Shown here: positions 2,138 to 47,102 of the stretch, in pieces
Layout of the letters: each line of letters opens with the position of its first letter
Numbering within the stretch: the first letter of the stretch is position 1
From: a virus
Strand: one strand, 5' to 3'
IMG/VR virus record: IMGVR_UViG_3300034025_000034
Location: 1 to 47,102 of that record
Length of the DNA stretch: 47,102 nucleotides
Notes under the pieces: generated by a model
Seen by the model: the letters and a program-made list of their open reading frames with translations, nothing else
The model's database searches: none
Told to the model about the DNA's origin: nothing
Made by a program: the position numbers and the translations under genes

Positions 2138-4083
2138 TACTGCTCGACAGTGCTAAGTTGCAAAATGTTGCTGCTAATATTTCCAAGCGCCTGACTGTCC
2201 GCCAACCTATAAATCGCCCCACGCGTAAGCCAGACATAAGCGTCATTTACAGCTCCGACAATCCAGGATGATGTGCGCGTCGAGCTGTTACCAACCCGAT
2301 GCCTCCATGCAAACCGTCCCATAGGCTCAGGCCCAGTTGACATACCCAAAAACTCCCAGGCGCTGGTGCTAGTAACATCCTCAGTCCAAACCGCCAGAGC
2401 AGTAACAGGTCCATTAATGCGGAAGGCTTCCAGTGTATAGCTGGTACGATACACCATATGCTGTGCTGCAAATGGATCAGCTTCCTGCGGAGGATCGTTT
2501 TGGCTTCCCAAGTACTCAGCGCCAGTCGCCAAAATAGCTCCCCAACTCTGTGTAGAGGTCACGCTAATGGGACCACCTGCAGAAGCAAATGGCCCGAGTG
2601 GAAACTGTGTAGCACTTGCCAGCGTCGTACGGCCGCTATTGCTAATTACGCCTGCACTGAGCGTTCCACCAAAATAAGCACTGCCGTCTGTGCGTAGATA
2701 CACCGTACCATTAGCTTCCGAGCAAGTGGTGACACTGGCTTGTGCCGGACCATACCACAGGAAAAATTGGTTGGTATTGCCAAAGCCATTACCAATGATT
2801 AGCTGCGAGCCGCCAACGGTAAATACAAACCTGCCACCTGCGACATTGATGATAGCGTCAAGCAAACCTGAGCTGAGCTTTCCAACGGTTAACTCAGCAA
2901 CTTTGGCGCTGGTGATTTGAGCGTCGCCGATCTTGGCGTTGTTGATCGCAGCATCCTGGATAAGCGCTGTGGTGATCGCAGCATTATCAATCTGCGCCGT
3001 TCCAATAGCTGCATTGGCGATCAGCGCACGTCCGATGGCTGCTCCGCCAATATACGTGCTGATGTTGCCAGACGTAAGATAGCTCACCGCAGCCAAACTG
3101 CCAAACCCTGCCGTGCGGCTAATGTCCACAGCGCCGCTTATGCGCGAAGCAAAGTCCAGCAGCCCTGTGCTTTGTGCTGCAATGTCGATTACATTCTGCA
3201 GCGCCAGCGCGCCAAACCCGGTAGTGTTGCCTGGGGCAATTACGTTGAGCAGTGCCAGGGCACCAAGCCCGGTGATGCTATTGACACCGAGCGCTCCGAT
3301 TACCTGCGTCGCAAGGTTGACCTTTGAGCCGCTGCCAAACGCCACCGACCCGTCAGGGTTATAAATGGTGATGTTCGTGCCTTCGATGCTGCCGTCCTTT
3401 AGCAGCGCCCAGCCAGCCTTAGTCGCAGGATTGTAGCTATAGCTGCTGATCACATTGCCAATCTTGGCATCCGTGATCGCAGCATCCTGGATATGCGCCA
3501 CGCCCACAGCAAGATTAGCGATCTTCCCGCTCGTCACCGCTAGGTTTGCAATCTTGGTGTTGTTGACCGCCAAGTCTGCAATCTTGGCCTCTACGATCTG
3601 GGCCTCGCCAATCTTTGCAGTGACAATCGCTGCGTCGCCGATCTTAGCCGTGACCACAGCCAGGTCTTGCATCTTTGCAGTACCCACCGCAAGGTCTTTA
3701 ATCTTAGCCTCGGTTACGGCTAGCGCCGCCAGCTTCTGCGTACCCACAGCCCCGTCAAATATCTTGTCGAACTCAACTGCACCATCACGGATTTTCTGCA
3801 CAGTGATGGCAGCTTCAGCAATCTGCGAGGTGTCAATCTGAAACAGGTCAGCAGCGGTGGGTGGATCGAACGCAGGATTGCCAAGATAAAGCTCAGCCTC
3901 TTCTTGGCTAAGCCACACAGGCGAGTAGCCGTCGGGCACGTACTGCTGCGGAGGGATAACGATGCCATTGCTACTGCCAGCAACCACACGCGTGGGATCA
4001 ACGTCAGCTTCCGCCAACGCTTGCACAAGCACCCTGGCATACTCTTGCCAGCTCTTGTAGTTGTCGGGATCAGGAAGAGCCAT
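2137..4083 (-). CDS. Tail fibre protein (648 aa) with two blocks of decapeptide repeats
   Basis: About 12 repeats of a 10-aa unit (for example AVGTAKMQDL, AVVTAKIGDA, AIVTAKIGEA) span aa 91-210. About 5 more (AAIGTAQIDN, AAITTALIQD, AAINNAKIGD) span aa 347-400. The C-terminal half is non-repetitive. The start overlaps the stop of the upstream gene (TAATG). Confidence 0.7.
   Translation of the reverse strand: MALPDPDNYKSWQEYARVLVQALAEADVDPTRVVAGSSNGIVIPPQQYVPDGYSPVWLSQEEAELYLGNPAFDPPTAADLFQIDTSQIAEAAITVQKIRDGAVEFDKIFDGAVGTQKLAALAVTEAKIKDLAVGTAKMQDLAVVTAKIGDAAIVTAKIGEAQIVEAKIADLAVNNTKIANLAVTSGKIANLAVGVAHIQDAAITDAKIGNVISSYSYNPATKAGWALLKDGSIEGTNITIYNPDGSVAFGSGSKVNLATQVIGALGVNSITGLGALALLNVIAPGNTTGFGALALQNVIDIAAQSTGLLDFASRISGAVDISRTAGFGSLAAVSYLTSGNISTYIGGAAIGRALIANAAIGTAQIDNAAITTALIQDAAINNAKIGDAQITSAKVAELTVGKLSSGLLDAIINVAGGRFVFTVGGSQLIIGNGFGNTNQFFLWYGPAQASVTTCSEANGTVYLRTDGSAYFGGTLSAGVISNSGRTTLASATQFPLGPFASAGGPISVTSTQSWGAILATGAEYLGSQNDPPQEADPFAAQHMVYRTSYTLEAFRINGPVTALAVWTEDVTSTSAWEFLGMSTGPEPMGRFAWRHRVGNSSTRTSSWIVGAVNDAYVWLTRGAIYRLADSQALGNISSNILQLSTVEQ
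2884..3045 (-). repeat. Coding tandem repeat block 2 of the tail fibre (10-aa period, about 5 units)
   Basis: Covers aa 347-400. It shares the 19-mer gatcgcagcatcctggata (2944-2962) with block 1 (3475-3493). Confidence 0.65.
3454..3813 (-). repeat. Coding tandem repeat block 1 of the tail fibre (30-nt / 10-aa period, about 12 units)
   Basis: The periodicity is visible in the translation at aa 91-210 and in recurring atcttggc/gatcgc strings in the DNA. Confidence 0.7.
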
Positions 4084-36172: not shown

Positions 36173-37624
36173 ATGTCGCATGATTTCCCCGTTCGTCTGT
36201 GGCCGGTCGCCGAGGTCCTGATCCCTGAAGCGCGGCAGCGCACCAAGGCTGAGGCGGATGCCTCGCTGGTCGCCAGCATTGAGCGCGATGGTCTGATCAA
36301 CCCGATCCTTATCCATCAGGACGGAACCTTGGTCGCGGGCGAGCGCCGGCTGGACGCGCATCGCAAGCTGCAGCTGCCCAACATTCGCGTCACCATCATG
36401 GAGCAGCTACCGGCGGACACTGCCTTCCGCCTTGAGTTGGTCGAGAACCTAGCGCGCAAGCAGCTGCCTTGGCAAGACGAGGTTGCTGCGCTGGCAGCTT
36501 ATCACAAGCTGCGCATGGAGACTGTCGGCCCAGCATGGACGCAGAAGGGCACGGCCAATGATCTGGGCGTCGGTGACAGTAAGATCAGCGAAGCCTTGCA
36601 GATCGCAGCACAGCTAGATGATGCGGACGTGCGGGCCTGTCCGACGCAGACCGGCGCGCTGAACCTTATCCGCGGGCGAGCCGAGCGCGCGCTGATTGCA
36701 GCCAAGAGTCGAGGGCTTGTAGTCTCGGCCTCTGTGATGGAAAGCCTTGTGCCCAGCCTTCCGGCTAACGCCACCAAGGAGGAGCGCACGAAGGCTATGC
36801 TCGACAGCATTGACCTGGGCGAAGACATTGAGCAAGTGGTCAGCGAAGCAGACAAAATCGACCAGCTGCTGGAAGCTGGGGCGGAAGCTATGGCTTTGCT
36901 CAATGCGGATCACGCCGCATCAGCCGTCAACGACTTGGTCATCAACGCAGACTTTCTGGAGTGGGCAAGTGAATATACTGGACCAAAATTTGACGTGCTG
37001 CACATCGACTTCCCTTACGGCAAGGGGTATAGCGGGAGTAACACTCGCAGGACAGGCTCCGCCCATATCAATCCTACCTACCTGGACGACCCGGATATAT
37101 ACTTCCAGCTGGTCGACGGTCTCATGGCGGTACAAGATAACGTGGCCTTTCCTGCCGCCCATTGCATATTCTGGTTTGACATGCAATACTACCAATGGAC
37201 TGTTGATCGCTTCACAGCATCAGGATGGAGTTTGGTTCAGCCTTACCCTCTCCTCTGGACTAAGGGTTATACCGGCGTGGCTGCAGATACCCGACGCCGC
37301 CCTCGTCACTGCTATGAGACTGCCCTCATGTTCGCTCGCGGAGACCGCAAGATCAGCAAGCTGCAGAACGATCACGTCGAGTGCGCGCTCGAAGACACCA
37401 AGCTCCACATTAGTCAGAAGCCGGTTGCTATGCTCAAGCATTTCCTCCAGCTGGTGGTCGATGAGCACACGGCAATCCTGGACCCCACGTGTGGCTCTGG
37501 TAGCGCCTTGGCAGCTGCGATACAGCTCAAAGCCGCTCGCGTATTGGGTATCGAGCTAGACGCGAACAATGCGGAAGTCGCTCGCTTTCTGATCCAGCGT
37601 AAGGGGCAAGCAGATGCAGCGTGA
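36173..37624 (+). CDS. ParB-like nuclease domain fused to a DNA methyltransferase (probable N6-adenine; N4-cytosine not excluded) (483 aa)
   Basis: SD TAAGGAG lies upstream. The N-terminus has the ParB/Srx motif LINPILIHQDGTLVAGERRLDAHRKL. The C-terminus has motif IV HIDFPYG followed later by motif I ILDPTCGSGSA, which is the beta-class order. Confidence 0.85.
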   Translation: MSHDFPVRLWPVAEVLIPEARQRTKAEADASLVASIERDGLINPILIHQDGTLVAGERRLDAHRKLQLPNIRVTIMEQLPADTAFRLELVENLARKQLPWQDEVAALAAYHKLRMETVGPAWTQKGTANDLGVGDSKISEALQIAAQLDDADVRACPTQTGALNLIRGRAERALIAAKSRGLVVSASVMESLVPSLPANATKEERTKAMLDSIDLGEDIEQVVSEADKIDQLLEAGAEAMALLNADHAASAVNDLVINADFLEWASEYTGPKFDVLHIDFPYGKGYSGSNTRRTGSAHINPTYLDDPDIYFQLVDGLMAVQDNVAFPAAHCIFWFDMQYYQWTVDRFTASGWSLVQPYPLLWTKGYTGVAADTRRRPRHCYETALMFARGDRKISKLQNDHVECALEDTKLHISQKPVAMLKHFLQLVVDEHTAILDPTCGSGSALAAAIQLKAARVLGIELDANNAEVARFLIQRKGQADAA

Positions 37625-37922
37625 TGCCATCAACCCCTCGCACTACCGAGACCATCCATCAGGTGTCGAGTGCATAACCATTACGGAGCACATGGGCTTC
37701 CTGCTTGGCAACGCTGTGAAGTACATCTGGCGTGCTGGGCAGAAAGGAGATTACATCGAGGACCTCAAGAAGGCTCGATGGTATCTCGACCGTGAGATCA
37801 GCAACGTAGAAAAGAAGCGAGCAGAACATGCCCCCATCTCTTCCCTGGCCGATGTACAGTCCCGCAGAGAACAGCTCTGGACCCAAACTTGTGCTGCTTG
37901 GCGAAGCGCCTGGAGAAGATGA
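37614..37922 (+). CDS. DUF3310-family protein (102 aa)
   Basis: The sequence INPSHYRDHPSGVECITITEHMGFLLGNAVKYIWRAGQKGDYIEDLKKARWYLDREI matches the NPxHY ... GNAxKY ... DLxKAxxY signature. The 3' 95 nt overlap the next gene. Confidence 0.7.
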   Translation: MQRDAINPSHYRDHPSGVECITITEHMGFLLGNAVKYIWRAGQKGDYIEDLKKARWYLDREISNVEKKRAEHAPISSLADVQSRREQLWTQTCAAWRSAWRR

Positions 37923-38910
37923 AGACAAGGCTGGCGTTCCCTTCGTGGGCGCCAGCGGTCGGTTGCTCAAGCGTGACCTGATGCCCAGCGCTGGGCTGGA
38001 CCCCTCTGATTGGCACATGCTCAATGTCTTTACGTCTCGTCCCCCCAACAACGACCTCAAGCTCTGGACGGCCAACAAGACTGAGCTCAAAAAGCTGGGT
38101 CAAGTCCCGCAGGGCGATCCTCTCAACAAGCGGTTCCTGTTGGCTGAGCATCGCCACCATCTTGCAGAGCTCGACGCACGCTTACGACAGCTTGCGCCTG
38201 ACCTTATTCTCTGCCTTGGGGGTACTGCGCTCTGGGCCATTAGCGGTGATGGCGCAATTGGCACTCACAGGGGTACGTTCTTTCGGTCCAGATACGGTCT
38301 GGCTATCGCAACCTACCACCCCGCTGCAATACTTCGTCAATGGAGCAACAAACCTGTCGCATGGGCAGATATGCGAAAAGTGGCTGCGCATCTAGACGGC
38401 ACGCTAACGCCGCCCCTGCGCCGGCGGTTCTATGTCAACCCAAGCTGGCAGGAGATTGCAGAGGTCTATAGCATCTTTGCGGCCAATCCCAGCTGGATGC
38501 TGGGTGTCGACATTGAGACCTGCCCAGGCATCGACCAGATCACCACCATCAGCTTCTGCACTCCGACGCTCGGCATCTGCATCCCGATTTGGGACAAGAA
38601 CAACGTCAGCGGGGGACACAACTATTGGGCCACTGTGAGCGACGAACGCAAGGCTTGGCGCTGGATCAACCGCTTCGCACAGCTGGCTAATCCCAAGGTT
38701 CTGCAAAATGGGCTGTACGATAGCCAGTACCTACTGGACGCACCTATTGACATTCGTCTCAGACATTGGCAAGATGACGACGCGATTTTGCATCACGCTC
38801 TGCAGCCCGAGTTGCAGAAGTCGCTGGGGTTCCTATCTAGCATCTACCTGAATGAGCCAAGCTGGAAGCAGATGAGAACCTCAAACAAGGACGCGAAAGC
38901 GGACGAATAG
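37828..38910 (+). CDS. DNA polymerase I, N-terminal fragment: family-4 UDG-like domain plus 3'-5' exonuclease motifs Exo I and Exo II (360 aa)
   Basis: The UDG-4 motifs are LLGEAPGEDEDKAGVPFVG and TYHPAAILRQ. Exo I is GVDIETC and Exo II is LQNGLYDSQYLL. The ORF ends at TAG 38908-38910. An alternative start is the ATG at 37852. Confidence 0.85.
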   Translation: MPPSLPWPMYSPAENSSGPKLVLLGEAPGEDEDKAGVPFVGASGRLLKRDLMPSAGLDPSDWHMLNVFTSRPPNNDLKLWTANKTELKKLGQVPQGDPLNKRFLLAEHRHHLAELDARLRQLAPDLILCLGGTALWAISGDGAIGTHRGTFFRSRYGLAIATYHPAAILRQWSNKPVAWADMRKVAAHLDGTLTPPLRRRFYVNPSWQEIAEVYSIFAANPSWMLGVDIETCPGIDQITTISFCTPTLGICIPIWDKNNVSGGHNYWATVSDERKAWRWINRFAQLANPKVLQNGLYDSQYLLDAPIDIRLRHWQDDDAILHHALQPELQKSLGFLSSIYLNEPSWKQMRTSNKDAKADE

Positions 38911-38925
38911 GAGCACAGGGGGCAC

Positions 38926-40479
38926 ATGCCTTACATCGAAATAGAGGGTGAAATCCCCCAAGGTCTCGACAGCTATACAAACTATCAGGTTTATAATTGT
39001 CTAGACTCGGCTATCACCGCACAACTTCTTCCTGTCCTTAAAAGCAATCTCAACGCTGCAACCGCCACGGTCTACAACCGTGAGATGCGGGTGCTGGCGC
39101 TGTGCCTTGAGATGTCCACGAAAGGATTTCCCGTTGACCAGATGTGCCTGTCCAGTTTGCTGTTTGATCTCCAGCGGGATGCTGCCCGAGCGCTTGCTGT
39201 CTTACATAGGCTCTGTGCCGCAGTCGACTTCCGACCGATTAATCCACGAAGCAGTGTCGACGTTCCTGATCTCTTCTACCGCCACTTGGCCTTGCCTGAG
39301 ATTTGGGAGTTCGACCGGAAGACAAACCAGCGCAAGCTCAGCGCTGACATCAAAGCCCTAGAGAAGCTGCAGCATAACTATCCCATTGCTCGCCCGTTCG
39401 TGAACGCGATCATCAGCTATCGCGAGAGCAGCAAGATGGCCAGTGTCTTCAGCCGCGGGCTAGAGCCTGTGACGGGTAACTTGCGCTGCAACTTCAGCCC
39501 GAGCGGCACAGAGACCGGCCGCTTGAGCAGCCAACAAAACCCCTACCAGCGAGGCACCAATGGGCAGAACATTACGGACCGCATCCGGCAAGTTGTTACC
39601 GCCCCTCCCGGCTTTGCCATACTCAACTTCGACCTTAAAACAGCTGAGTCGGTTGCCGTGGGCTATATCTCTGGAGATCGAGCGTACATTGACGCTTGCG
39701 AAGGAGGCGACCTCCACACAGGGGTCTGTAAACTGGTGTGGCCTCACATGGACTGGACCGGAGATAGAAAGGTTGACAAAGCTATTGCAGAGTCACCTTT
39801 CTACCGTCATTTCAGCTATCGGGACCAAGCTAAGCGCGGGGGACACGGCAGCAACTATTATGGACAACCCTCAACAATTGCAGGAATTATCAACGTACCT
39901 ACAAAGTTTGTTGAAGACTTTCAGCGAAACTACTTTGACGCCTTCCCCGGCATCCCTGAGTGGCACCTAAACGTTATCGCCCAGGTCCAACGCTTCGGCA
40001 CCATTACCACGCAGCTCAAGCGTGAGCGGCGCTTTTGGGGCCGGCCTGATGACAAGGCCACATGGCGCGAGGCAATTGCGTTCGAGCCGCAATCTCTCGT
40101 CGGGGATATTATGAATGAAGGGCTCATCCAAGTCCAGCAGTGGATCAAGCAGCAGCTGCCCGAGGCAAAGACGCTGCTCGGCCGCGGCAAGCGCCTCCTC
40201 GAGTTTAACCCACGCGTCCCTGATCTTCGAGCGCAGATACATGATGCCGGGGTGTTCATCGTGCCCCTTGATGGTATTGCTGAGATCGCTCGAGAGCTGA
40301 CGCAGCGCCTTCAGTATCCCATCCACTTCCCAGGCGTAGGCGACATGCTTATCAAGAACGACGTGCTGATCGGCAAGCGGTGGAACAAGGCTCACAAGGG
40401 CGAGACCCACAGGTTCCTGAAGCAAGGGCTCCGTGACTATGAGCCTGGTGACGACGTCAGCTGGTTGCGTGAAGCATGA
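38926..40479 (+). CDS. DNA polymerase I, C-terminal fragment: Exo III motif plus the polymerase domain (517 aa)
   Basis: Exo III is YQVYNCLDSAITAQLL. Motif A is ILNFDLKTAESVAV, motif B is RDQAKRGGHGSNYYGQP and motif C is QIHDAGVF. It is in the same reading frame as 37828..38910. Confidence 0.9.
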   Translation: MPYIEIEGEIPQGLDSYTNYQVYNCLDSAITAQLLPVLKSNLNAATATVYNREMRVLALCLEMSTKGFPVDQMCLSSLLFDLQRDAARALAVLHRLCAAVDFRPINPRSSVDVPDLFYRHLALPEIWEFDRKTNQRKLSADIKALEKLQHNYPIARPFVNAIISYRESSKMASVFSRGLEPVTGNLRCNFSPSGTETGRLSSQQNPYQRGTNGQNITDRIRQVVTAPPGFAILNFDLKTAESVAVGYISGDRAYIDACEGGDLHTGVCKLVWPHMDWTGDRKVDKAIAESPFYRHFSYRDQAKRGGHGSNYYGQPSTIAGIINVPTKFVEDFQRNYFDAFPGIPEWHLNVIAQVQRFGTITTQLKRERRFWGRPDDKATWREAIAFEPQSLVGDIMNEGLIQVQQWIKQQLPEAKTLLGRGKRLLEFNPRVPDLRAQIHDAGVFIVPLDGIAEIARELTQRLQYPIHFPGVGDMLIKNDVLIGKRWNKAHKGETHRFLKQGLRDYEPGDDVSWLREA

Positions 40480-41708
40480 GTGCAGCCCTAGGCCAAAGGC
40501 GGCTGCCCAACTTCCTGCACAGCTTCGTAGACTTCGCAGCAACTTATAGCACTACGCCGTTGTTCAGCAAATATGCCGCCCTATGGATGATCGGCACTGC
40601 TGTCACGCGCGCAGTGGGCATGAAGGCTCGTGGTAACGACCTGCACCCCAACTTCTTCTTCCAGCTTGTGGGCGGGCCAGGTACTGGCAAATCACAGGCG
40701 GTGAAGGCTACGCGCGAAATCCTCTTGCCGGCTACGAAGATGAGCCTTATTCCTGCGTCCATTACCCGCGCGGGACTTGAGGATTACATGAAGGGTAACG
40801 TGCAAACCAACAGGAAGAGCCCAGATGGCGGTATCATCATCAGCAATGAGTGCATTGGCCTCTCAGAGGAAATGCAAGGCATACTCCCAGATCAGGACCT
40901 CGGGCACCTTACGCTCTATAACATTCTGTATGACTTGCCCAATCTACACGTCGCTGTCACACGCACACACGGAGAGGTCAGGCTTGAGTCCCCTTATTGC
41001 AGCATCCTTACTGGCGCACAACCAGCCTTCCTCGCAACCACCATGCCCGAGCAAGCGTGGGGTATGGGATTTATGTCTCGTAGCGTTATGGTGTTTGACG
41101 TACCTCGTACTCGCACCAGCATGTTTCTTAATATCCAAGTTGACCACAAGCTCAAAGCGGACCTGATCCACGACCTGCGGATGATCCACAACTTGCACGG
41201 CTGGATGACCTGGACCAAGCAAGCAGTGGACCTGTATGACGAGTGGTATGTCAAGCACGGCGGGAATCCGATCCCTCAGGCTAAGCGACTGGCGATGGGC
41301 TACAACGCGCGTCGCGAGTTGCACATGGTCAAGCTGGCTATGGCGATGAGCATTGCACGCGGGAACGACCTCATCGTGCAGCTAGACGACGTGGCAGATG
41401 CCATCGAGCTGCTGCTGCTGACCGAGGACCGCATGCGCATGGTGTTCACGGAGATGTCGAACACTGGCAGCATGGTGGCGATCGAAGACATGCTGGACGT
41501 GGTGCGGGCCAATACAGCAGAGGGCGTGTTCACGGCCGAGGCAGTGCTTATTGAGATGGCAATGCAACGCTTTCCCTCCACGCAGGTCCATCATGTTATT
41601 GAGAACCTGGTGTCCTCTCAGGCCCTCAAGGTGCATACAGGGCCTGGCTCTATCAATGCTCGGGGGATGCGGCAGTTCTTGTCAGGGAACAAAGCCAGCC
41701 CAATGTAA
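40476..41708 (+). CDS. DUF3987-like P-loop NTPase, a putative replicative helicase/primase-associated ATPase (410 aa)
   Basis: It is ATGA-coupled to the polymerase gene. Walker A is QLVGGPGTGKSQAV, preceded by the typical N-terminal region (LPNFLHSFVDFAA...). Confidence 0.5.
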   Translation: MSAALGQRRLPNFLHSFVDFAATYSTTPLFSKYAALWMIGTAVTRAVGMKARGNDLHPNFFFQLVGGPGTGKSQAVKATREILLPATKMSLIPASITRAGLEDYMKGNVQTNRKSPDGGIIISNECIGLSEEMQGILPDQDLGHLTLYNILYDLPNLHVAVTRTHGEVRLESPYCSILTGAQPAFLATTMPEQAWGMGFMSRSVMVFDVPRTRTSMFLNIQVDHKLKADLIHDLRMIHNLHGWMTWTKQAVDLYDEWYVKHGGNPIPQAKRLAMGYNARRELHMVKLAMAMSIARGNDLIVQLDDVADAIELLLLTEDRMRMVFTEMSNTGSMVAIEDMLDVVRANTAEGVFTAEAVLIEMAMQRFPSTQVHHVIENLVSSQALKVHTGPGSINARGMRQFLSGNKASPM

Positions 41709-41739: not shown

Positions 41740-44700
41740 CTACTCGTCGAGCGCTGTGCTGCCGATCCCCACCCGAGCATATGGTTCCACCTTGCCTGCC
41801 TTGAAGCGGCTGAACAAGTCGCCCTTCTCTTCGCGCCGCGTCGTGGCAGCTGCTGACTTGATCACGCTGCTCACAGGCACCATCTTCATCACCGCCCTAT
41901 CGAGCACGTTCTGCATTTCATCATAGTCATCATGCTGCATGGCATCAGCGTAGATTTTGCCCAGCGACTGCACCGTAGTCTTCGTAGCCTCCTGGTCCTT
42001 GTACAGCTCCCGAGCCGCTACTTGCTCGCGTTCGACTTCAAGCTGATTGAGTCCGAGTGCATGCAGTACGCGAGTACTTGGTCCGAGTCCGCGCACCTGC
42101 GGAGCCCCTGTTCCCATGGACTTAATGTAGTCACCTTCTGCGGCCGAAAACGCACGGAAGATTGCTCGTGGTGCAATGGCACCGAGTAGCTGATCGCGAA
42201 CGTTTGGGTTCCTGAGCGCATTAACATCCCCTTCTCTGCCTATGTCCCATGCCGTGCCCACTGCCTTGCCCAGCTGCTTCATCTTCTCGAGGAACACAAA
42301 GTTCGTCAGCGAGCTTAGTTCGTTGCGCACGTCCGTGCCCGGTATGGTGCTGCTTGCCTGCAGGCTTGCGCCGAAGAACGCCGGCAGCCCGAAGTAGATT
42401 TCGTCCGCTGCCCCGCTCCAGTTTTCCTTCATCCACTGGAAGCTGCTGGGCGAGTCGCTGTTCCACTTGGCCAGTCCATCGGCCAGCCCCAGCAACGGCG
42501 TAGCGCCTAGGCCGCCGAGCGCCAACGCACTAGCCCCCTGCCACATGAACGGCCCCCACACGCCCTCGCGCATGCCGACCCCAGCATATTGCATCATCTG
42601 TCCGATGAAGTTGAACTGCCAGTTTTTGAACAAGCCGAAAGTGCTGCCCACAGGACCAGTAAATATTCTGCTGCGATCAACAACGCCATAACCATAGTTA
42701 GTAACATGGACACCACGCTGCATGAACCGATAGAGTTGATCACCCTCCAGTCCAAAGCCATGCTTCCCAGCACGATACATTGCAGCAGCAGAAACCATGC
42801 GGCTAAACTGCTCCGACTTCTCGGCCATGAAAGTCGACAGGTGCTTGATGCCATTCCACGCTCCTACCTCGAACTGCTCCTTGATGCTGCTGCCAGCGGC
42901 GCTATGCGGCCCAAGCCACTCGTCGACTTGGCTATGCTGCAGTGTGCCGTCTGTCGTGGCGCGCTCCAAAAACTGCTTTAGCTCCGGGCTTGCGTTGCGC
43001 AGATCGCTGACGCTTTGGCCCAGCACCTTGATCGGCGACAGGAACCCGCCAATGCCCCTTGGCTTGCCATCGCTGCCCATGCGCGGCAGCACATGATACC
43101 ACGCTTCGATCTCCTTCGCAGGAGCCTTGTTCAGATACGCAAGCGCAGGCAGCACGGTTTGCAGAGGCTGCAACACGTTGAGCAAGGCAAACGTCGGGTT
43201 CGCGATCGCCAGGTTCCAGTTGTACATCAGCGCATTGGTGCCCTGTGCAATCCGCGTCGCCGCCTTGCCACCCAGCGCCGTACCGAAGATGGGCTCCAGT
43301 GCCTTGTTCAGTGCATTGGTGATCCCGCCCTCAATGCCCATGAACTGATTGCCCTTGCGCATCAGGTCATTGTACAGGTGCTTGTCAGTCTTGCCCAGGT
43401 TGAACGCCTCTTGGCCCCACCGCTGCTTCCACGTGTGGAACCCAGCAAAGCGTAGGAGCTTCCTATAGTGTTCTTCGCTCTGCTTGATAACATCGTCCAG
43501 CGTATACTCGTGTGTGTCGGCTGAGCCGCGCAAGCCAGTACGCTCCTTGCTCATGGCTGCCGGTGCTCGCACACTGCCGGGCACCCTGCCGCTCTTGGCC
43601 GCGTCGATCTTCCGCAGTGCGCTTTGCACGATGTCTTGCGTATCAGCGCCCTTGCCGATGCTTGCGCTGACCAAGTCGCTGATGTGCCCCAGCCCACCCT
43701 CGTCAAACTCTGCGGCTTGCTTCGCTCCCTTGGCGTACTCCTCGCCAATCTTCCACTGGTGCCCGCGAGCAGCTGCCTCGTCGATGACCGCTTGGGCTTC
43801 CTTCTGCGCCGCCGACCCATTCTTGCCAGCAGCCAGCCACTTCGTCTGCTCGCGCTCATCAACCACCTTGCTGAAGAAGTCGCCCTTGAACACGCGAGGC
43901 ATGATGTACCCATCGAGCAGGCGGAAGCTGCCTTCCAGCTCGCTGTCCTTGAAGGCCGGCAACACCAGCTTCTCAAGCACGCTCGCATTAATATCCTGCA
44001 GCTCCTTGACGGCCGCAGTCGCAGAGGGGGACACGACCCCATCCGTCGTCAGCTTGGCAAGGTCATCCGCCGGAGTCTGCGTGTTGTTCGCCCGCACAAC
44101 AAGCTGGCGCTCTTCTTTGCTCAGCTTATTCCACAGCTGGCTGATGGGCGTGAAGCCCTCATAGCCGCTGACGTAGTCCGTGCCGCCCATGACGCTGCGA
44201 GCCGGGCTGCCCTTAAACTCAGCCTTGCCCTTGATCAGCTTGCTAACGTACTCATCAGCCGTCTGAATGTTCCCACGCAGCATGCCGAAGAGGCGACCGA
44301 ACACAGGGTTCTTGGCCTCCTTGAACATCGTAGGAGCAAAGATGTCGTGCAGCCCTGCCGCAGTGTCACGCAAGATTTTGCTATCTGCTAGACCCGTAGC
44401 TTCCCCCGCTGCTTTGCTCATCTTTGCAGCCATGGCGCTCACCCAGGTTTCCTTAGGCATAGTGCGCAGCGCAGCATAGTCTGTGTGCGTCATGCTATTG
44501 ATCAGCAAGTCGGTGTTCTTGTTGAACACGTCACTGCGCAGGGTCGGCTGAAACGCCTCGCGGAACCTGGCCCAGTTGCTCACATTCGCTTCAGCTGCGC
44601 TGTGCGCCTTCGGAGCAAAGTACTGCGGCTTGTCCGTCTTCAGCAAAAGCCACTTATCGCCCTCAGCAATTTGCGCAGCACCGAACCGCTTGGGAGCAAC

Positions 44701-45810
44701 AACAGAACCGTCAGCAGCAGTTGCCGCCGGACCCGCCTCAATGCGCTTGGCGACAACAAAAAGGCCACTGTCAGCTTCCCTTCCCATCAGTACGCCATCG
44801 TCAACATACTGCAGCGCGCTGCTCTCGTCTAGCGCCTTAGCCAGCGTACCAGCAGCCTTGTAGCTTCGCACCTCAAGTTCGCGCGGGTACTTGACCACAG
44901 CAGCCAAATCGTCGATGCTGGCAATATCAGGATGGTTGATCGCGCCGATGATCCGCTGCTGCCCGCCGGGATCAAGCGTGCGCAAGTTGGTCTCCGGCCC
45001 TTCCGTCAGTAACCGCTTGTTAAGCCCTGTCAGCGTCTCCTGCTCAGCGCGCTTGACATTGAACAAGCTGTTAACCAGCCGGTCACTCTCAGGATTACCG
45101 TTCTCCAGGTTGTGCACATAGCTGCTCTGCACGCCCTTGGTAATGTTGTCCGTGGGCCGCTCGAGTAAGACCTCTTGCGCCTTGCGCTGAATGAAGTCTG
45201 CCTTGTCCGCCCCGCCCTCAATCACGGCATCCGGCGTCTTTGCCATGCGCAGCTCGAACGTGGGCGCTAGGGCGGGCTCACTGCCGACGACTTTGCCCGC
45301 CTTGGGCAGCAGCTTGCCACCGGCCTTGAAATAGCCCCCTATGCCCCCGAACCCGCCCGCTAGGACGGTCGATAGGCCCACGTCCGCGAACAGATCGCCC
45401 CAGTTTTCTTGCGGTGCCGTAGCAAGCCCCACGCCCAACCGGCCTAGCTCGAAGGGCGCATACCGCACGGCTTCCCGCACAGCGCCTTGAGCAAAGCCTG
45501 CTTCCAGGCCCGTCTTGGCCACCACGCGCTCTAGGGCTGCAGCCGCTTTGGGCAGCGTGCTGAGCTTGAAAGCTGCCGTGTAGGGAATGATTACTGGCAG
45601 GATTTCGGAGGCAACACCGGCTATCGGGTTCTGCTCGCGAAACGTCTGCGCAGTCTCAGTCGGACTTTGCCCAACCATCTCGAACAGGCTGCTGCCAGCA
45701 CTGGCGAGAAAGCCGCCAATGGGCCCAGCGTCTAGCTTGTACGGGTCTGGCTGATTAGCTGCTGCCGCTTTGTCTGCCCCATCCCAAAGCTGCTGCCACT
45801 TGTCAGCCAT
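41740..45810 (-). CDS. Giant internal virion / DNA-ejection protein (1356 aa)
   Basis: It is the last gene of the leftward arm. Its size and position after the SLT-domain protein parallel T7 gp16. The start follows the upstream stop (TAAcATG at 45808-45814). Confidence 0.65.
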   Translation of the reverse strand: MADKWQQLWDGADKAAAANQPDPYKLDAGPIGGFLASAGSSLFEMVGQSPTETAQTFREQNPIAGVASEILPVIIPYTAAFKLSTLPKAAAALERVVAKTGLEAGFAQGAVREAVRYAPFELGRLGVGLATAPQENWGDLFADVGLSTVLAGGFGGIGGYFKAGGKLLPKAGKVVGSEPALAPTFELRMAKTPDAVIEGGADKADFIQRKAQEVLLERPTDNITKGVQSSYVHNLENGNPESDRLVNSLFNVKRAEQETLTGLNKRLLTEGPETNLRTLDPGGQQRIIGAINHPDIASIDDLAAVVKYPRELEVRSYKAAGTLAKALDESSALQYVDDGVLMGREADSGLFVVAKRIEAGPAATAADGSVVAPKRFGAAQIAEGDKWLLLKTDKPQYFAPKAHSAAEANVSNWARFREAFQPTLRSDVFNKNTDLLINSMTHTDYAALRTMPKETWVSAMAAKMSKAAGEATGLADSKILRDTAAGLHDIFAPTMFKEAKNPVFGRLFGMLRGNIQTADEYVSKLIKGKAEFKGSPARSVMGGTDYVSGYEGFTPISQLWNKLSKEERQLVVRANNTQTPADDLAKLTTDGVVSPSATAAVKELQDINASVLEKLVLPAFKDSELEGSFRLLDGYIMPRVFKGDFFSKVVDEREQTKWLAAGKNGSAAQKEAQAVIDEAAARGHQWKIGEEYAKGAKQAAEFDEGGLGHISDLVSASIGKGADTQDIVQSALRKIDAAKSGRVPGSVRAPAAMSKERTGLRGSADTHEYTLDDVIKQSEEHYRKLLRFAGFHTWKQRWGQEAFNLGKTDKHLYNDLMRKGNQFMGIEGGITNALNKALEPIFGTALGGKAATRIAQGTNALMYNWNLAIANPTFALLNVLQPLQTVLPALAYLNKAPAKEIEAWYHVLPRMGSDGKPRGIGGFLSPIKVLGQSVSDLRNASPELKQFLERATTDGTLQHSQVDEWLGPHSAAGSSIKEQFEVGAWNGIKHLSTFMAEKSEQFSRMVSAAAMYRAGKHGFGLEGDQLYRFMQRGVHVTNYGYGVVDRSRIFTGPVGSTFGLFKNWQFNFIGQMMQYAGVGMREGVWGPFMWQGASALALGGLGATPLLGLADGLAKWNSDSPSSFQWMKENWSGAADEIYFGLPAFFGASLQASSTIPGTDVRNELSSLTNFVFLEKMKQLGKAVGTAWDIGREGDVNALRNPNVRDQLLGAIAPRAIFRAFSAAEGDYIKSMGTGAPQVRGLGPSTRVLHALGLNQLEVEREQVAARELYKDQEATKTTVQSLGKIYADAMQHDDYDEMQNVLDRAVMKMVPVSSVIKSAAATTRREEKGDLFSRFKAGKVEPYARVGIGSTALDE

Positions 45811-45811
45811 G

Positions 45812-47102
45812 TTACCTGTACTCCGTCCGAGTTGTGGTGCCGCGAGGGCCTACCGTTGTCGTCTGCTTCTGGTCGTTGCGCTGAGCGGCCACTCTTGCTG
45901 CTGTGGCTGCGCCGCCCGCGTTCATCAGCTGCTCGCGGAACTTGGGGTTTGTCAGCGCAGCGGCCGTCAAGCGCTCTGTCATCGCCCGCTGGTAGGCCTC
46001 AGGATAACCTGTAGTGCCTTCGCGCAGCCCCATCTGTCCCAAGCTGCTGACTACATCGGTTTGCAGAGCCTTGAACGCTTCGTCCTTGCCCTGGAACATG
46101 GCACTGACCCGACCTGTGCTGACCACATCACCGGCCACCGTAGCAGTACCCAGGACCATGCCGCCCGCACCAGCCTCAGGGTCCTGCTGCGCCATCTGAG
46201 CCGCTTGAGTCGCCGCCGTCACCACCAGCGAGTTGTGCAGCTGCGCCACATTCTGGCTGGCGCTGTTCGCTTGGCTTGCCATGCTCTCCATCACGCCAGC
46301 TCGTCGAGTAGCAAACACCGCTGACACTGCCCCGCTGATCGGCGTGCGAGTCGTAATCAGCTTATCGCCCTGCCTCCGCGTCGTAATCACGCTGTCGCCC
46401 TGCACGGTCAAATCATGCTCCTGGTTCCACTGGTCCGTGGCAACCTTGAAGTTGGTCAGCGCATACTGGTTCGCAGTCTGCGCATTGTGCGTCATAGTCT
46501 CTTGCAGGCTCTTGGCCTTGGTCATCTCATTATTGGCAACCGCCGAGTTGTACCTGACCATGTCGTCATCGAACTTGTCCTTGCGCGCACGCAGCTCATC
46601 GTTCGCACGCCCGACGCCTTGCATTGCTCCACCACCGACAGCCGCCAGCACCTTGCCCAGGCTGGCCCCGTCTTCCAGGTTGCTAAGCGCCGCGCCCAGC
46701 CCCTTGAACCACCCGTTACGGCGCGTCTCAAGCTCGTCCTTCTCAGCCATCTCATGTGGCTTGAGCTTCTCGAGCGCAGCGTCCACCTTCGAGAAATCAG
46801 TTGCAACTTCCATCTCAGGTGCTGCAAGCTCGGGCCGATCGCTGACATCTTGCACAAAGCTCTGCGGGCGCAAGGCAGCTGCCTCACCCCTGTTAAGCTC
46901 CCCGATAGCGGCTTGCCCCATACGAGGATCGAAGCCGGAAGCCAAGCCACCAGCCTCCTGCACGTCGCCCATCACCCGAGCAACATAGTCAGCCGTCTGG
47001 CTCCCATAATTCCTGGGGTCCGTGCCGCCAATATACTGTCTCACAGCCCCTTCCATGCTGCCTGTGCGCTGCATGCCTTCTTTCAGCAGCACTGCTGCGC
47101 CC
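45812..47102 (-). CDS. C-terminal part of the SLT-domain internal virion protein (continues into 1..759 across the circular junction)
   Basis: The ORF runs off the right edge. Bases 46976-47102 duplicate 1-127. The frame is continuous (47090-46975=115, the same codon phase as base 1). Confidence 0.8.
   Translation of the reverse strand, partial: GAAVLLKEGMQRTGSMEGAVRQYIGGTDPRNYGSQTADYVARVMGDVQEAGGLASGFDPRMGQAAIGELNRGEAAALRPQSFVQDVSDRPELAAPEMEVATDFSKVDAALEKLKPHEMAEKDELETRRNGWFKGLGAALSNLEDGASLGKVLAAVGGGAMQGVGRANDELRARKDKFDDDMVRYNSAVANNEMTKAKSLQETMTHNAQTANQYALTNFKVATDQWNQEHDLTVQGDSVITTRRQGDKLITTRTPISGAVSAVFATRRAGVMESMASQANSASQNVAQLHNSLVVTAATQAAQMAQQDPEAGAGGMVLGTATVAGDVVSTGRVSAMFQGKDEAFKALQTDVVSSLGQMGLREGTTGYPEAYQRAMTERLTAAALTNPKFREQLMNAGGAATAARVAAQRNDQKQTTTVGPRGTTTRTEYR
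46976..47102. repeat. Second copy of the 127-bp terminal overlap
   Basis: It is identical to 1-127. Confidence 0.95.

Follow-up and report, generated by a model that had tools for sequence, protein, structure and literature searches.

A two-gene family A polymerase locus

The DNA analyzed here, positions 1 to 47,102 of the viral record IMGVR_UViG_3300034025_000034 from IMG/VR (the whole stretch is referred to below as the window), carries two consecutive open reading frames (ORFs) that together specify a uracil-DNA glycosylase (UDG)-like domain, a 3'-5' exonuclease, and a family A DNA polymerase. The two ORFs, at 37828 to 38910 and 38926 to 40479, share a reading frame and are separated by a TAG codon and the 15 nucleotides (nt) GAGCACAGGGGGCAC (EHRGH if translated). 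The initial annotation saw in them a single polymerase gene interrupted by a stop, for which it offered four explanations: programmed readthrough or suppression, a two-subunit polymerase reinitiated at ATG 38926, a recent nonsense mutation, or a base-call error. Its coordinates were found to be correct, as was its placement of exonuclease motifs I and II (Exo I and Exo II) in the first ORF and of Exo III and polymerase (Pol) motifs A, B, and C in the second; from these motif positions, it is the exonuclease fold that is interrupted, at a point between Exo II and Exo III. The idea of a single interrupted gene did not hold, as the break is conserved with varied stop codons, frames, and spacers. 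Instead, the TAG at 38908 to 38910 is very probably the ordinary stop of the first of two adjacent, cotranscribed polymerase genes that arose by an ancient fission and whose products most likely make up one enzyme. The features of the two genes are as follows.

37828-38910, plus strand: gene 1 (subunit 1), UDG-like domain with Exo I and Exo II, 360 amino acids (aa), terminating at TAG 38908-38910
ATG 37828 or GTG 37891, plus strand: candidate starts of gene 1, both used by gene callers (360-aa versus 339-aa product)
37900-37914, plus strand: UDG motif A, GEAPG, gene 1
38317-38328, plus strand: UDG motif HPAA, gene 1
38509-38520, plus strand: Exo I, DIET (catalytic D228-I-E230 at 38509-38517), gene 1
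38704-38721, plus strand: Exo II, QNGLYD (N294 and D298), gene 1
38908-38910, plus strand: TAG, read here as the genuine stop of subunit 1, overlapping a Shine-Dalgarno string (TAGGAG)
38909-38913, plus strand: AGGAG, Shine-Dalgarno-like, 12 nt before ATG 38926 and overlapping the TAG
38911-38925, plus strand: 15-nt spacer, read here as untranslated
38917-38922, plus strand: AGGGGG within the spacer, second Shine-Dalgarno-like string, 3 nt before ATG 38926
38926-40479, plus strand: gene 2 (subunit 2), 517 aa from ATG 38926, C-terminal exonuclease part (Exo III helix) and family A polymerase domain
38992-39006, plus strand: Exo III, YNCLD (Y23 and D27 of subunit 2), gene 2
39631-39651, plus strand: Pol motif A, DLKTAES, gene 2
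39820-39861, plus strand: Pol motif B, gene 2
40234-40248, plus strand: Pol motif C, QIHDA, gene 2

The combined length of the two products is 877 aa. For gene 1, a conserved N-terminal W.MY.P in its relatives favors ATG 37828 and, with it, the longer form. Pfam assigned gene 1 to PF03167 (UDG; E value of 1e-20) and gene 2 to PF00476 (DNA_pol_A; E value of 4.7e-30), while sequence matches in the PDB were to family-4 UDGs for gene 1 (1ui0 at an E value of 1.5e-15) and to Taq and Klenow for gene 2.

Conservation of the break among relatives

The best 120 homologues of gene 1 (53 to 100% identity) were all 328 to 406 aa in length and had the same end point. A filter-free HMMER search with gene 1 against 1.84 billion cluster representatives (50%-identity clusters) yielded 478 with an E value of <1e-30. 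Among the best 150 of these (34 to 61% identity), about 146 were of split-form length, most being 300 to 400 aa and some being truncated fragments, and the match ran to the end of the protein; three others were longer on the N-terminal side only, and one outlier, P0192 (512 aa), extended 178 aa beyond the match. Similarly, 118 of the best 120 homologues of gene 2 were 455 to 541 aa, with query coverage of 87 to 100% (98 to 100% for 115).

The junction itself was analyzed by script in DNA from relatives present in IMG/VR, JGI metagenomes, and GenBank phages, which gave 51 distinct loci whose first protein is 31 to 84% identical to that of the window. Gene 1 stops at the same aligned residue in all 51 (...WK(Q/F)MR....K.DE, then the stop), and the N terminus of gene 2 is also conserved, as MP(Y/I/F)I(D/E).(E/Q)G in a near clade and as MKIFDT.. 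in a distant clade. The two genes are neighbors in all loci for which DNA context is available. The start of gene 2 is likewise marked by conserved signals in the near clade, where the stop of gene 1 is embedded in TAGGAGCAG, so that it overlaps an AGGAG Shine-Dalgarno string; this sequence, followed by 2 to 3 nt and an ATG or TTG, is the conserved start arrangement, and in short-spacer loci of this clade AGGAG lies 6 to 7 nt ahead of the polymerase ATG or TTG. Where a small ORF has been inserted, the same string precedes the start of the insert, whose own stop overlaps the polymerase start as TGATG or TAATG. The same break, with its own start signals, is thus present in close and distant relatives alike, pointing to a stable two-gene arrangement, and of the options in the initial annotation it is the two-subunit polymerase with its start at ATG 38926 that these relatives bear out.

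The only cultured relative is Caulobacter phage Kuura, in which two small ORFs lie between the halves. Its gene Kuura_029 (2207-3316 of locus L001) is annotated "hypothetical protein" but corresponds to the UDG-exonuclease subunit of the polymerase, and the split is not mentioned in the Kuura paper. Relatives were found at the protein level only, as a megablast search of the locus against 50,697 phage records gave no match. A scan of genome contigs recovered a single short contig of a metagenome-assembled genome and provided no host or prophage link.

Fused relatives were also identified, including those of Microcystis phage Mel-JY34 (810 aa) and MW202489 (779 aa), both flanked by the DUF3987 gene as in the window. 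With the Mel-JY34 enzyme as the query, a search recovered at least 120 fused proteins of 761 to 937 aa (117 of them under 860 aa), each with PF03167 and PF00476; PF01612, the exonuclease family, was matched in 86 of the 120 listed. At the site of the break, the fused proteins have a conserved 17-aa loop, WKDEGKEWD.....EDQLW.YNC.D, in place of which the split forms have, ahead of the Exo III helix, a chain 1 tail of 13 aa and a chain 2 head of 22 aa, both of them conserved. A split intein or intron at the junction was considered and rejected, as the spacer is 15 nt and the extra peptide (approximately 13 aa for the chain 1 tail and 22 aa for the chain 2 head) is not of intein-like length. In a neighbor-joining tree of the polymerase region, the 33 split taxa formed one clan apart from 100 fused taxa (branch length, 0.165); because the split sequences group in this way, the tree fits a single old fission.

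Catalytic residues and predicted fold of the two chains

Invariance of residues was judged on 35 aligned homologues, both split and fused. D228 and E230 of Exo I, the Q, N, Y, and D of Exo II (including N294 and D298), and the Y, N, and D of Exo III (including Y23 and D27 of chain 2) were invariant in all 35, as were D236, R299, K303, H307, N310, Y311, H439, and D440 in the polymerase domain of subunit 2. The proofreading motif set of Exo I (DxE), Exo II (NxxxD), and Exo III (YxxxD) is therefore complete but spread over two ORFs.

The two chains were artificially joined head to tail and modeled with AlphaFold2 using an alignment (A4) that included full-length fused homologues. The model had a mean predicted local distance difference test score (pLDDT) of 92 and a predicted template modeling score of 0.90, with low confidence (57 to 76) only at residues 341 to 380, around the junction; run without an alignment, the concatenated sequence reached a pLDDT of only 33. 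The Exo III helix occupies residues 376 to 399 of the concatenated model, with a pLDDT of ≥95 from residue 381. Using Foldseek, the model was matched to the exonuclease and polymerase domains of the Klenow fragment over approximately 680 columns, with a target-normalized TM-score of 0.74 to 0.78 and an E value of 2e-28. The model thus shows the two chains to be compatible with one canonical exonuclease-polymerase fold, insofar as a prediction can.

The following course of events would account for the locus. An ancestral gene for a UDG-exonuclease-polymerase of family A would have been divided into two by an ancient fission. Gene 1 would encode the UDG-like domain and the part of the exonuclease with Exo I and Exo II. 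Gene 2 would initiate independently at ATG 38926, served by the Shine-Dalgarno-like strings AGGAG (overlapping the stop) and AGGGGG, and its product would comprise the Exo III helix together with the complete polymerase domain. The two products, with predicted masses of about 40 and 58 kDa, would most likely combine as a UDG-exonuclease-polymerase heterodimer whose proofreading site is composite, with chain 1 contributing the Asp/Glu/Asp metal ligands and chain 2 the Tyr and Asp of Exo III. Because the catalytic residues of the exonuclease are invariant on both chains, a two-subunit polymerase with such a site is likely. Judged by the comparative sequence data, the locus has two genes, a genuine stop, independent initiation, and conserved catalytic residues on both chains; physical assembly of the chains and activity of the composite site are what we infer from them.

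An alternative that retains the two genes is that their products act separately, gene 1 yielding an independent UDG that has a degenerate remnant of the exonuclease and gene 2 an exonuclease-deficient polymerase, with no heterodimer formed. In its favor, heterodimer binding is a prediction, and many relatives have other genes between the two, so that expression need not be strictly coupled. However, Exo I and Exo II on chain 1 and Exo III on chain 2 would hardly all be invariant if they did not contribute to a single active site, the two genes are always neighbors, and the concatenated sequence is modeled as one compact, Klenow-like exonuclease-polymerase fold. Moreover, the exonuclease domain is described as necessary for the stability of family A polymerases, and AlphaFold2 predicts a complex of the split exonuclease and polymerase products of S-SBP1 (PMC10201439). 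Separate products are hence considered improbable.

Stop codons, frames, and spacers at the junction

Programmed readthrough or suppression of the TAG would give an 883-aa UDG-Exo-Pol fusion as the functional enzyme, a possibility raised by the shared frame of the window ORFs, with only the TAG and five codons between them, and by two relatives (L055 and L058) that are in frame with a 9-nt spacer. However, no preference in frame could be identified across the 51 loci, the frame of gene 2 relative to gene 1 being 0 in 20, +1 in 12, and +2 in 19, and of the 13 loci with short spacers, only 3 have the two genes in frame. Gene 1 may end in any of the three stop codons (TGA at 24 loci, TAG at 20, and TAA at 7). 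The spacer ranges from -4 nt (an ATGA overlap) to 1734 nt, and at many loci the genes overlap or are separated by inserted ORFs of up to 1.7 kb. In the window, TAG terminates 14 of 52 greedily chosen ORFs, including those of 705 and 1356 aa, in agreement with the initial annotation that it is a genuine terminator elsewhere in this genome. A tRNA scan covering the window, with host tRNAs lying outside its scope, detected no tRNA gene there and hence no suppressor tRNA. RNA folding around the TAG predicted no unusual or stimulatory structure (z = -0.22), and a promoter and terminator scan gave no promoter-like or terminator-like site at the junction.

An exact-protein lookup recovered the same phage from other samples, and these assemblies were compared with the window over 4554 nt. 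All four assemblies (the window, ENA ERZ27253105, ENA ERZ27253112, and JGI 3300034008) carry the identical TAG. ERZ27253112 is 100% identical to the window, whereas ERZ27253105 and JGI 3300034008 each have one difference, a run of six G residues (G6) in place of five (G5) at 38918 to 38922, inside the Shine-Dalgarno-like AGGGGG just ahead of the polymerase start. G6 makes the spacer 16 nt and puts the ORFs out of frame, with both proteins unchanged. Because this frameshifting indel is the sole polymorphism, the spacer is evidently not translated within one protein. The G5/G6 difference may reflect either noise in the sequencing of a homopolymer or genuine variation in length with an effect on translation initiation.

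Because the frames of the 51 loci are distributed as above and the sibling assemblies have an out-of-frame spacer, the shared frame in the window is, on this comparison, a coincidence arising from a spacer of 15 nt and no more than expected by chance. With stops, frames, and spacers varying in this manner and a 1-nt indel in the spacer tolerated, readthrough as the source of the functional enzyme is very improbable. A recent nonsense mutation that left a decaying pseudogene is what a lone stop within a catalytic domain would resemble if relatives were unavailable; the same break, however, is shared by relatives with as little as 31% identity and by about 146 of the best 150 cluster representatives, with invariant catalytic residues on either side of the stop and a conserved chain 1 tail and chain 2 head, which leaves this explanation a negligible probability. 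A base-call or assembly error, suggested by nothing beyond prior plausibility and the nearby homopolymer G run, is effectively ruled out because independently made assemblies of this phage all have the TAG, and the stop falls at the same residue in every relative. Of the four options put forward by the initial annotation, therefore, the two-gene arrangement stood and the other three were set aside.

Several points nevertheless weigh against two genes whose products form one proofreading polymerase. PF01612 was not matched by gene 1 at an E value of ≤0.01 in the Pfam search, and the putative exonuclease assignment of this gene rests on its motifs, on alignment to fused homologues that do match PF01612, and on the model. 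The joined-chain model is a test of fold compatibility and not proof that a complex forms, and both the binding of the two chains and exonuclease activity are predictions. Finally, judged by sequence alone, some low-level incidental readthrough of the TAG may occur in the G5 variant.

It could also be supposed that the fission was adaptive rather than neutral, with proofreading set by subunit stoichiometry, fidelity tunable (for example, through translation of the polymerase subunit), and the tail and head peptides serving as a docking element; we regard this as doubtful at best. As a separate observation, the G5/G6 run proximal to the Shine-Dalgarno string is the only polymorphism in 4.5 kb.

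Comparison with known split and fused polymerases

Split polymerase genes are already documented, and the locus described here introduces no new principle. Split family A polymerase genes are known from T7-like cyanophages of the S-SBP1-like group (Czernecki et al. 2023, PMC10201439), and the split has also been described for a cyanophage lineage and for MEP401-type phages of OM43 (PMC10580990 for the latter). In LUZ24-like Pseudomonas phages, the polymerase is split into gp25, an "exonuclease subunit," and gp34, "part II." As in the window, the S-SBP1-like and LUZ24-like polymerases are each carried on two genes derived from gene fission, with no recoding, and their halves are expected to reassociate; in LUZ24, other small ORFs lie between the halves, as they do in relatives of the window phage. 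The position of the break differs. It was checked directly that LUZ24 gp25 carries Exo I, Exo II, and Exo III (YCLQD), placing its break at a domain boundary, whereas Exo III of the window enzyme is on the second gene. The S-SBP1 arrangement is likewise described as a separation of the exonuclease and polymerase domains (PMC10201439), while the break in the window is inside the exonuclease domain. The window enzyme also differs from both in having an N-terminal UDG domain and in belonging to a different polymerase lineage.

Fusions of UDG and PolA have been reported in N4-like cluster 17, SPO1-like, and SP15-like phages (PMC10201439; bioRxiv 10.1101/2025.03.26.645540). These and the Mel-JY34-type enzymes have the same domain order as the window, a family-4 UDG-like domain followed by the 3'-5' exonuclease and the family A polymerase, and a similar total length (roughly 800 to 900 aa, versus 877 aa in the window). 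Fused relatives at 25 to 30% identity share the gene neighborhood of the window, those of the Mel-JY34 type being the nearest. The described UDG-PolA fusions are all single polypeptides, however, while the window encodes two. In addition, the UDG domain of the N4-like enzymes has lost its catalytic residues, whereas the window clade keeps GEAPG and HPAA. Proteins of the near clade have both motifs unaltered; in the distant split clade, GEAWG and loss of the His are common. Judging from these motifs, lineages may differ in whether they still have UDG activity, its loss having been reported for the N4-like enzymes.

A further parallel is CCPol-MP of SCCmec, in which all that the polymerase chain has left of the exonuclease domain is its last helices, a separate protein serving as the complement (PMC10201439). 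Gene 2 similarly specifies a family A chain with only the last exonuclease-domain helices, which would be complemented by a separate protein. In the CCPol system, however, the complementary exonuclease fragment is absent and the unrelated MP binds, whereas in the window the missing part is encoded just upstream with its catalytic motifs intact. A literature search of incomplete coverage found no report of a family A polymerase split between Exo II and Exo III, and this break in a UDG-polymerase looks like an undescribed variant of the split family A polymerase.

For annotation, it follows that the TAG is not to be "repaired," as the locus would be neither a pseudogene nor a recoding site, and that the upstream gene, labeled only "uracil-DNA glycosylase" in many metagenome records and "hypothetical protein" in Kuura, should be regarded as the first subunit of the replicative polymerase. 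For enzymology, the locus would represent a natural and widespread family A polymerase whose proofreading site forms from two polypeptides, UDG domain included, and a ready-made system for studying the tolerance of the exonuclease fold to fission and the coordination of UDG, exonuclease, and polymerase across subunits. It may also be of use in engineering split polymerases.

Insertions at the junction in relatives

In relatives, the junction is a slot for unrelated cassettes. Several of the inserted small ORFs had no Pfam match, and two were identified as HNH endonucleases using PHROGs. The following insertions were assigned.

L020, 5677-6153: HNH endonuclease ORF (PF13392)
L045, 1059-1487: HNH endonuclease ORF (phrog_3377; E value of 2e-48)
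L061, 715-1065: HNH endonuclease ORF (phrog_3377; E value of 6e-35)
L018, L019, L022 to L026, L028, L030, L031, L035, and L036: DUF1937 ORFs at the junction

A DUF1937 gene lies directly upstream of the polymerase gene in most loci of the distant clade, and some loci have MazG-like and deoxyribosyltransferase-like genes at the junction. Several small junction ORFs are without known function, including one that encodes a mini P-loop protein.

Split gp43 genes in some T4-like phages are genes in pieces accompanied by free-standing homing endonucleases, and nrdA of Aeromonas phage Aeh1 is reportedly split by mobE, a free-standing homing endonuclease. The HNH-carrying relatives L020, L045, and L061 resemble such genes in that the junction acts as an insertion slot. 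Endonucleases are sporadic among the relatives, and the window itself, with its 15-nt spacer, has no endonuclease gene at the junction. In MEP401-type phages of OM43, the polymerase is split by a small ORF (PMC10580990).

An insertion of another kind was observed in two homologues of the polymerase subunit, P0355 (813 aa) and P0345 (821 aa), which have an in-frame insert of approximately 288 aa inside Pol motif B (..KKGGHA/CVTGDHEVL.../TNYYGQ..). The insert begins with Cys and is followed by Thr, as for an intein, and it had no Pfam match.

Genes flanking the polymerase locus

Downstream of gene 2 lies one further gene of the same orientation.

40476-41708, plus strand: DUF3987 gene, whose ATG overlaps the polymerase stop TGA (ATGA, 40476-40479)

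From this overlap, the DUF3987 gene is taken to be part of the same tightly packed replication operon as gene 2, and the ATGA points to translational coupling along the operon. The gene order with DUF3987 is the same in Kuura, Mel-JY34, and MW202489.

Immediately ahead of the polymerase genes, the window encodes a 483-aa protein (36173-37624) with a ParB N-terminal domain and an N6/N4 DNA methylase domain, and a methylase is also found upstream of the fused enzymes in Mel-JY34 and MW202489. A 102-aa ORF at 37614 to 37922 has a strong match to DUF3310 (PF11753), the PHROG "nucleotide kinase" (phrog_236; E value of 2e-30), and overlaps the putative ATG 37828 start of gene 1 by 95 nt (37828-37922) in a different frame. 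Two minus-strand ORFs, of 1356 aa (41740-45810) and 426 aa (45812-47092), had no match in the Pfam scan and converge on the replication operon. Kuura_021 (about 1358 aa) is of similar size to the 1356-aa ORF and occupies the same relative position.

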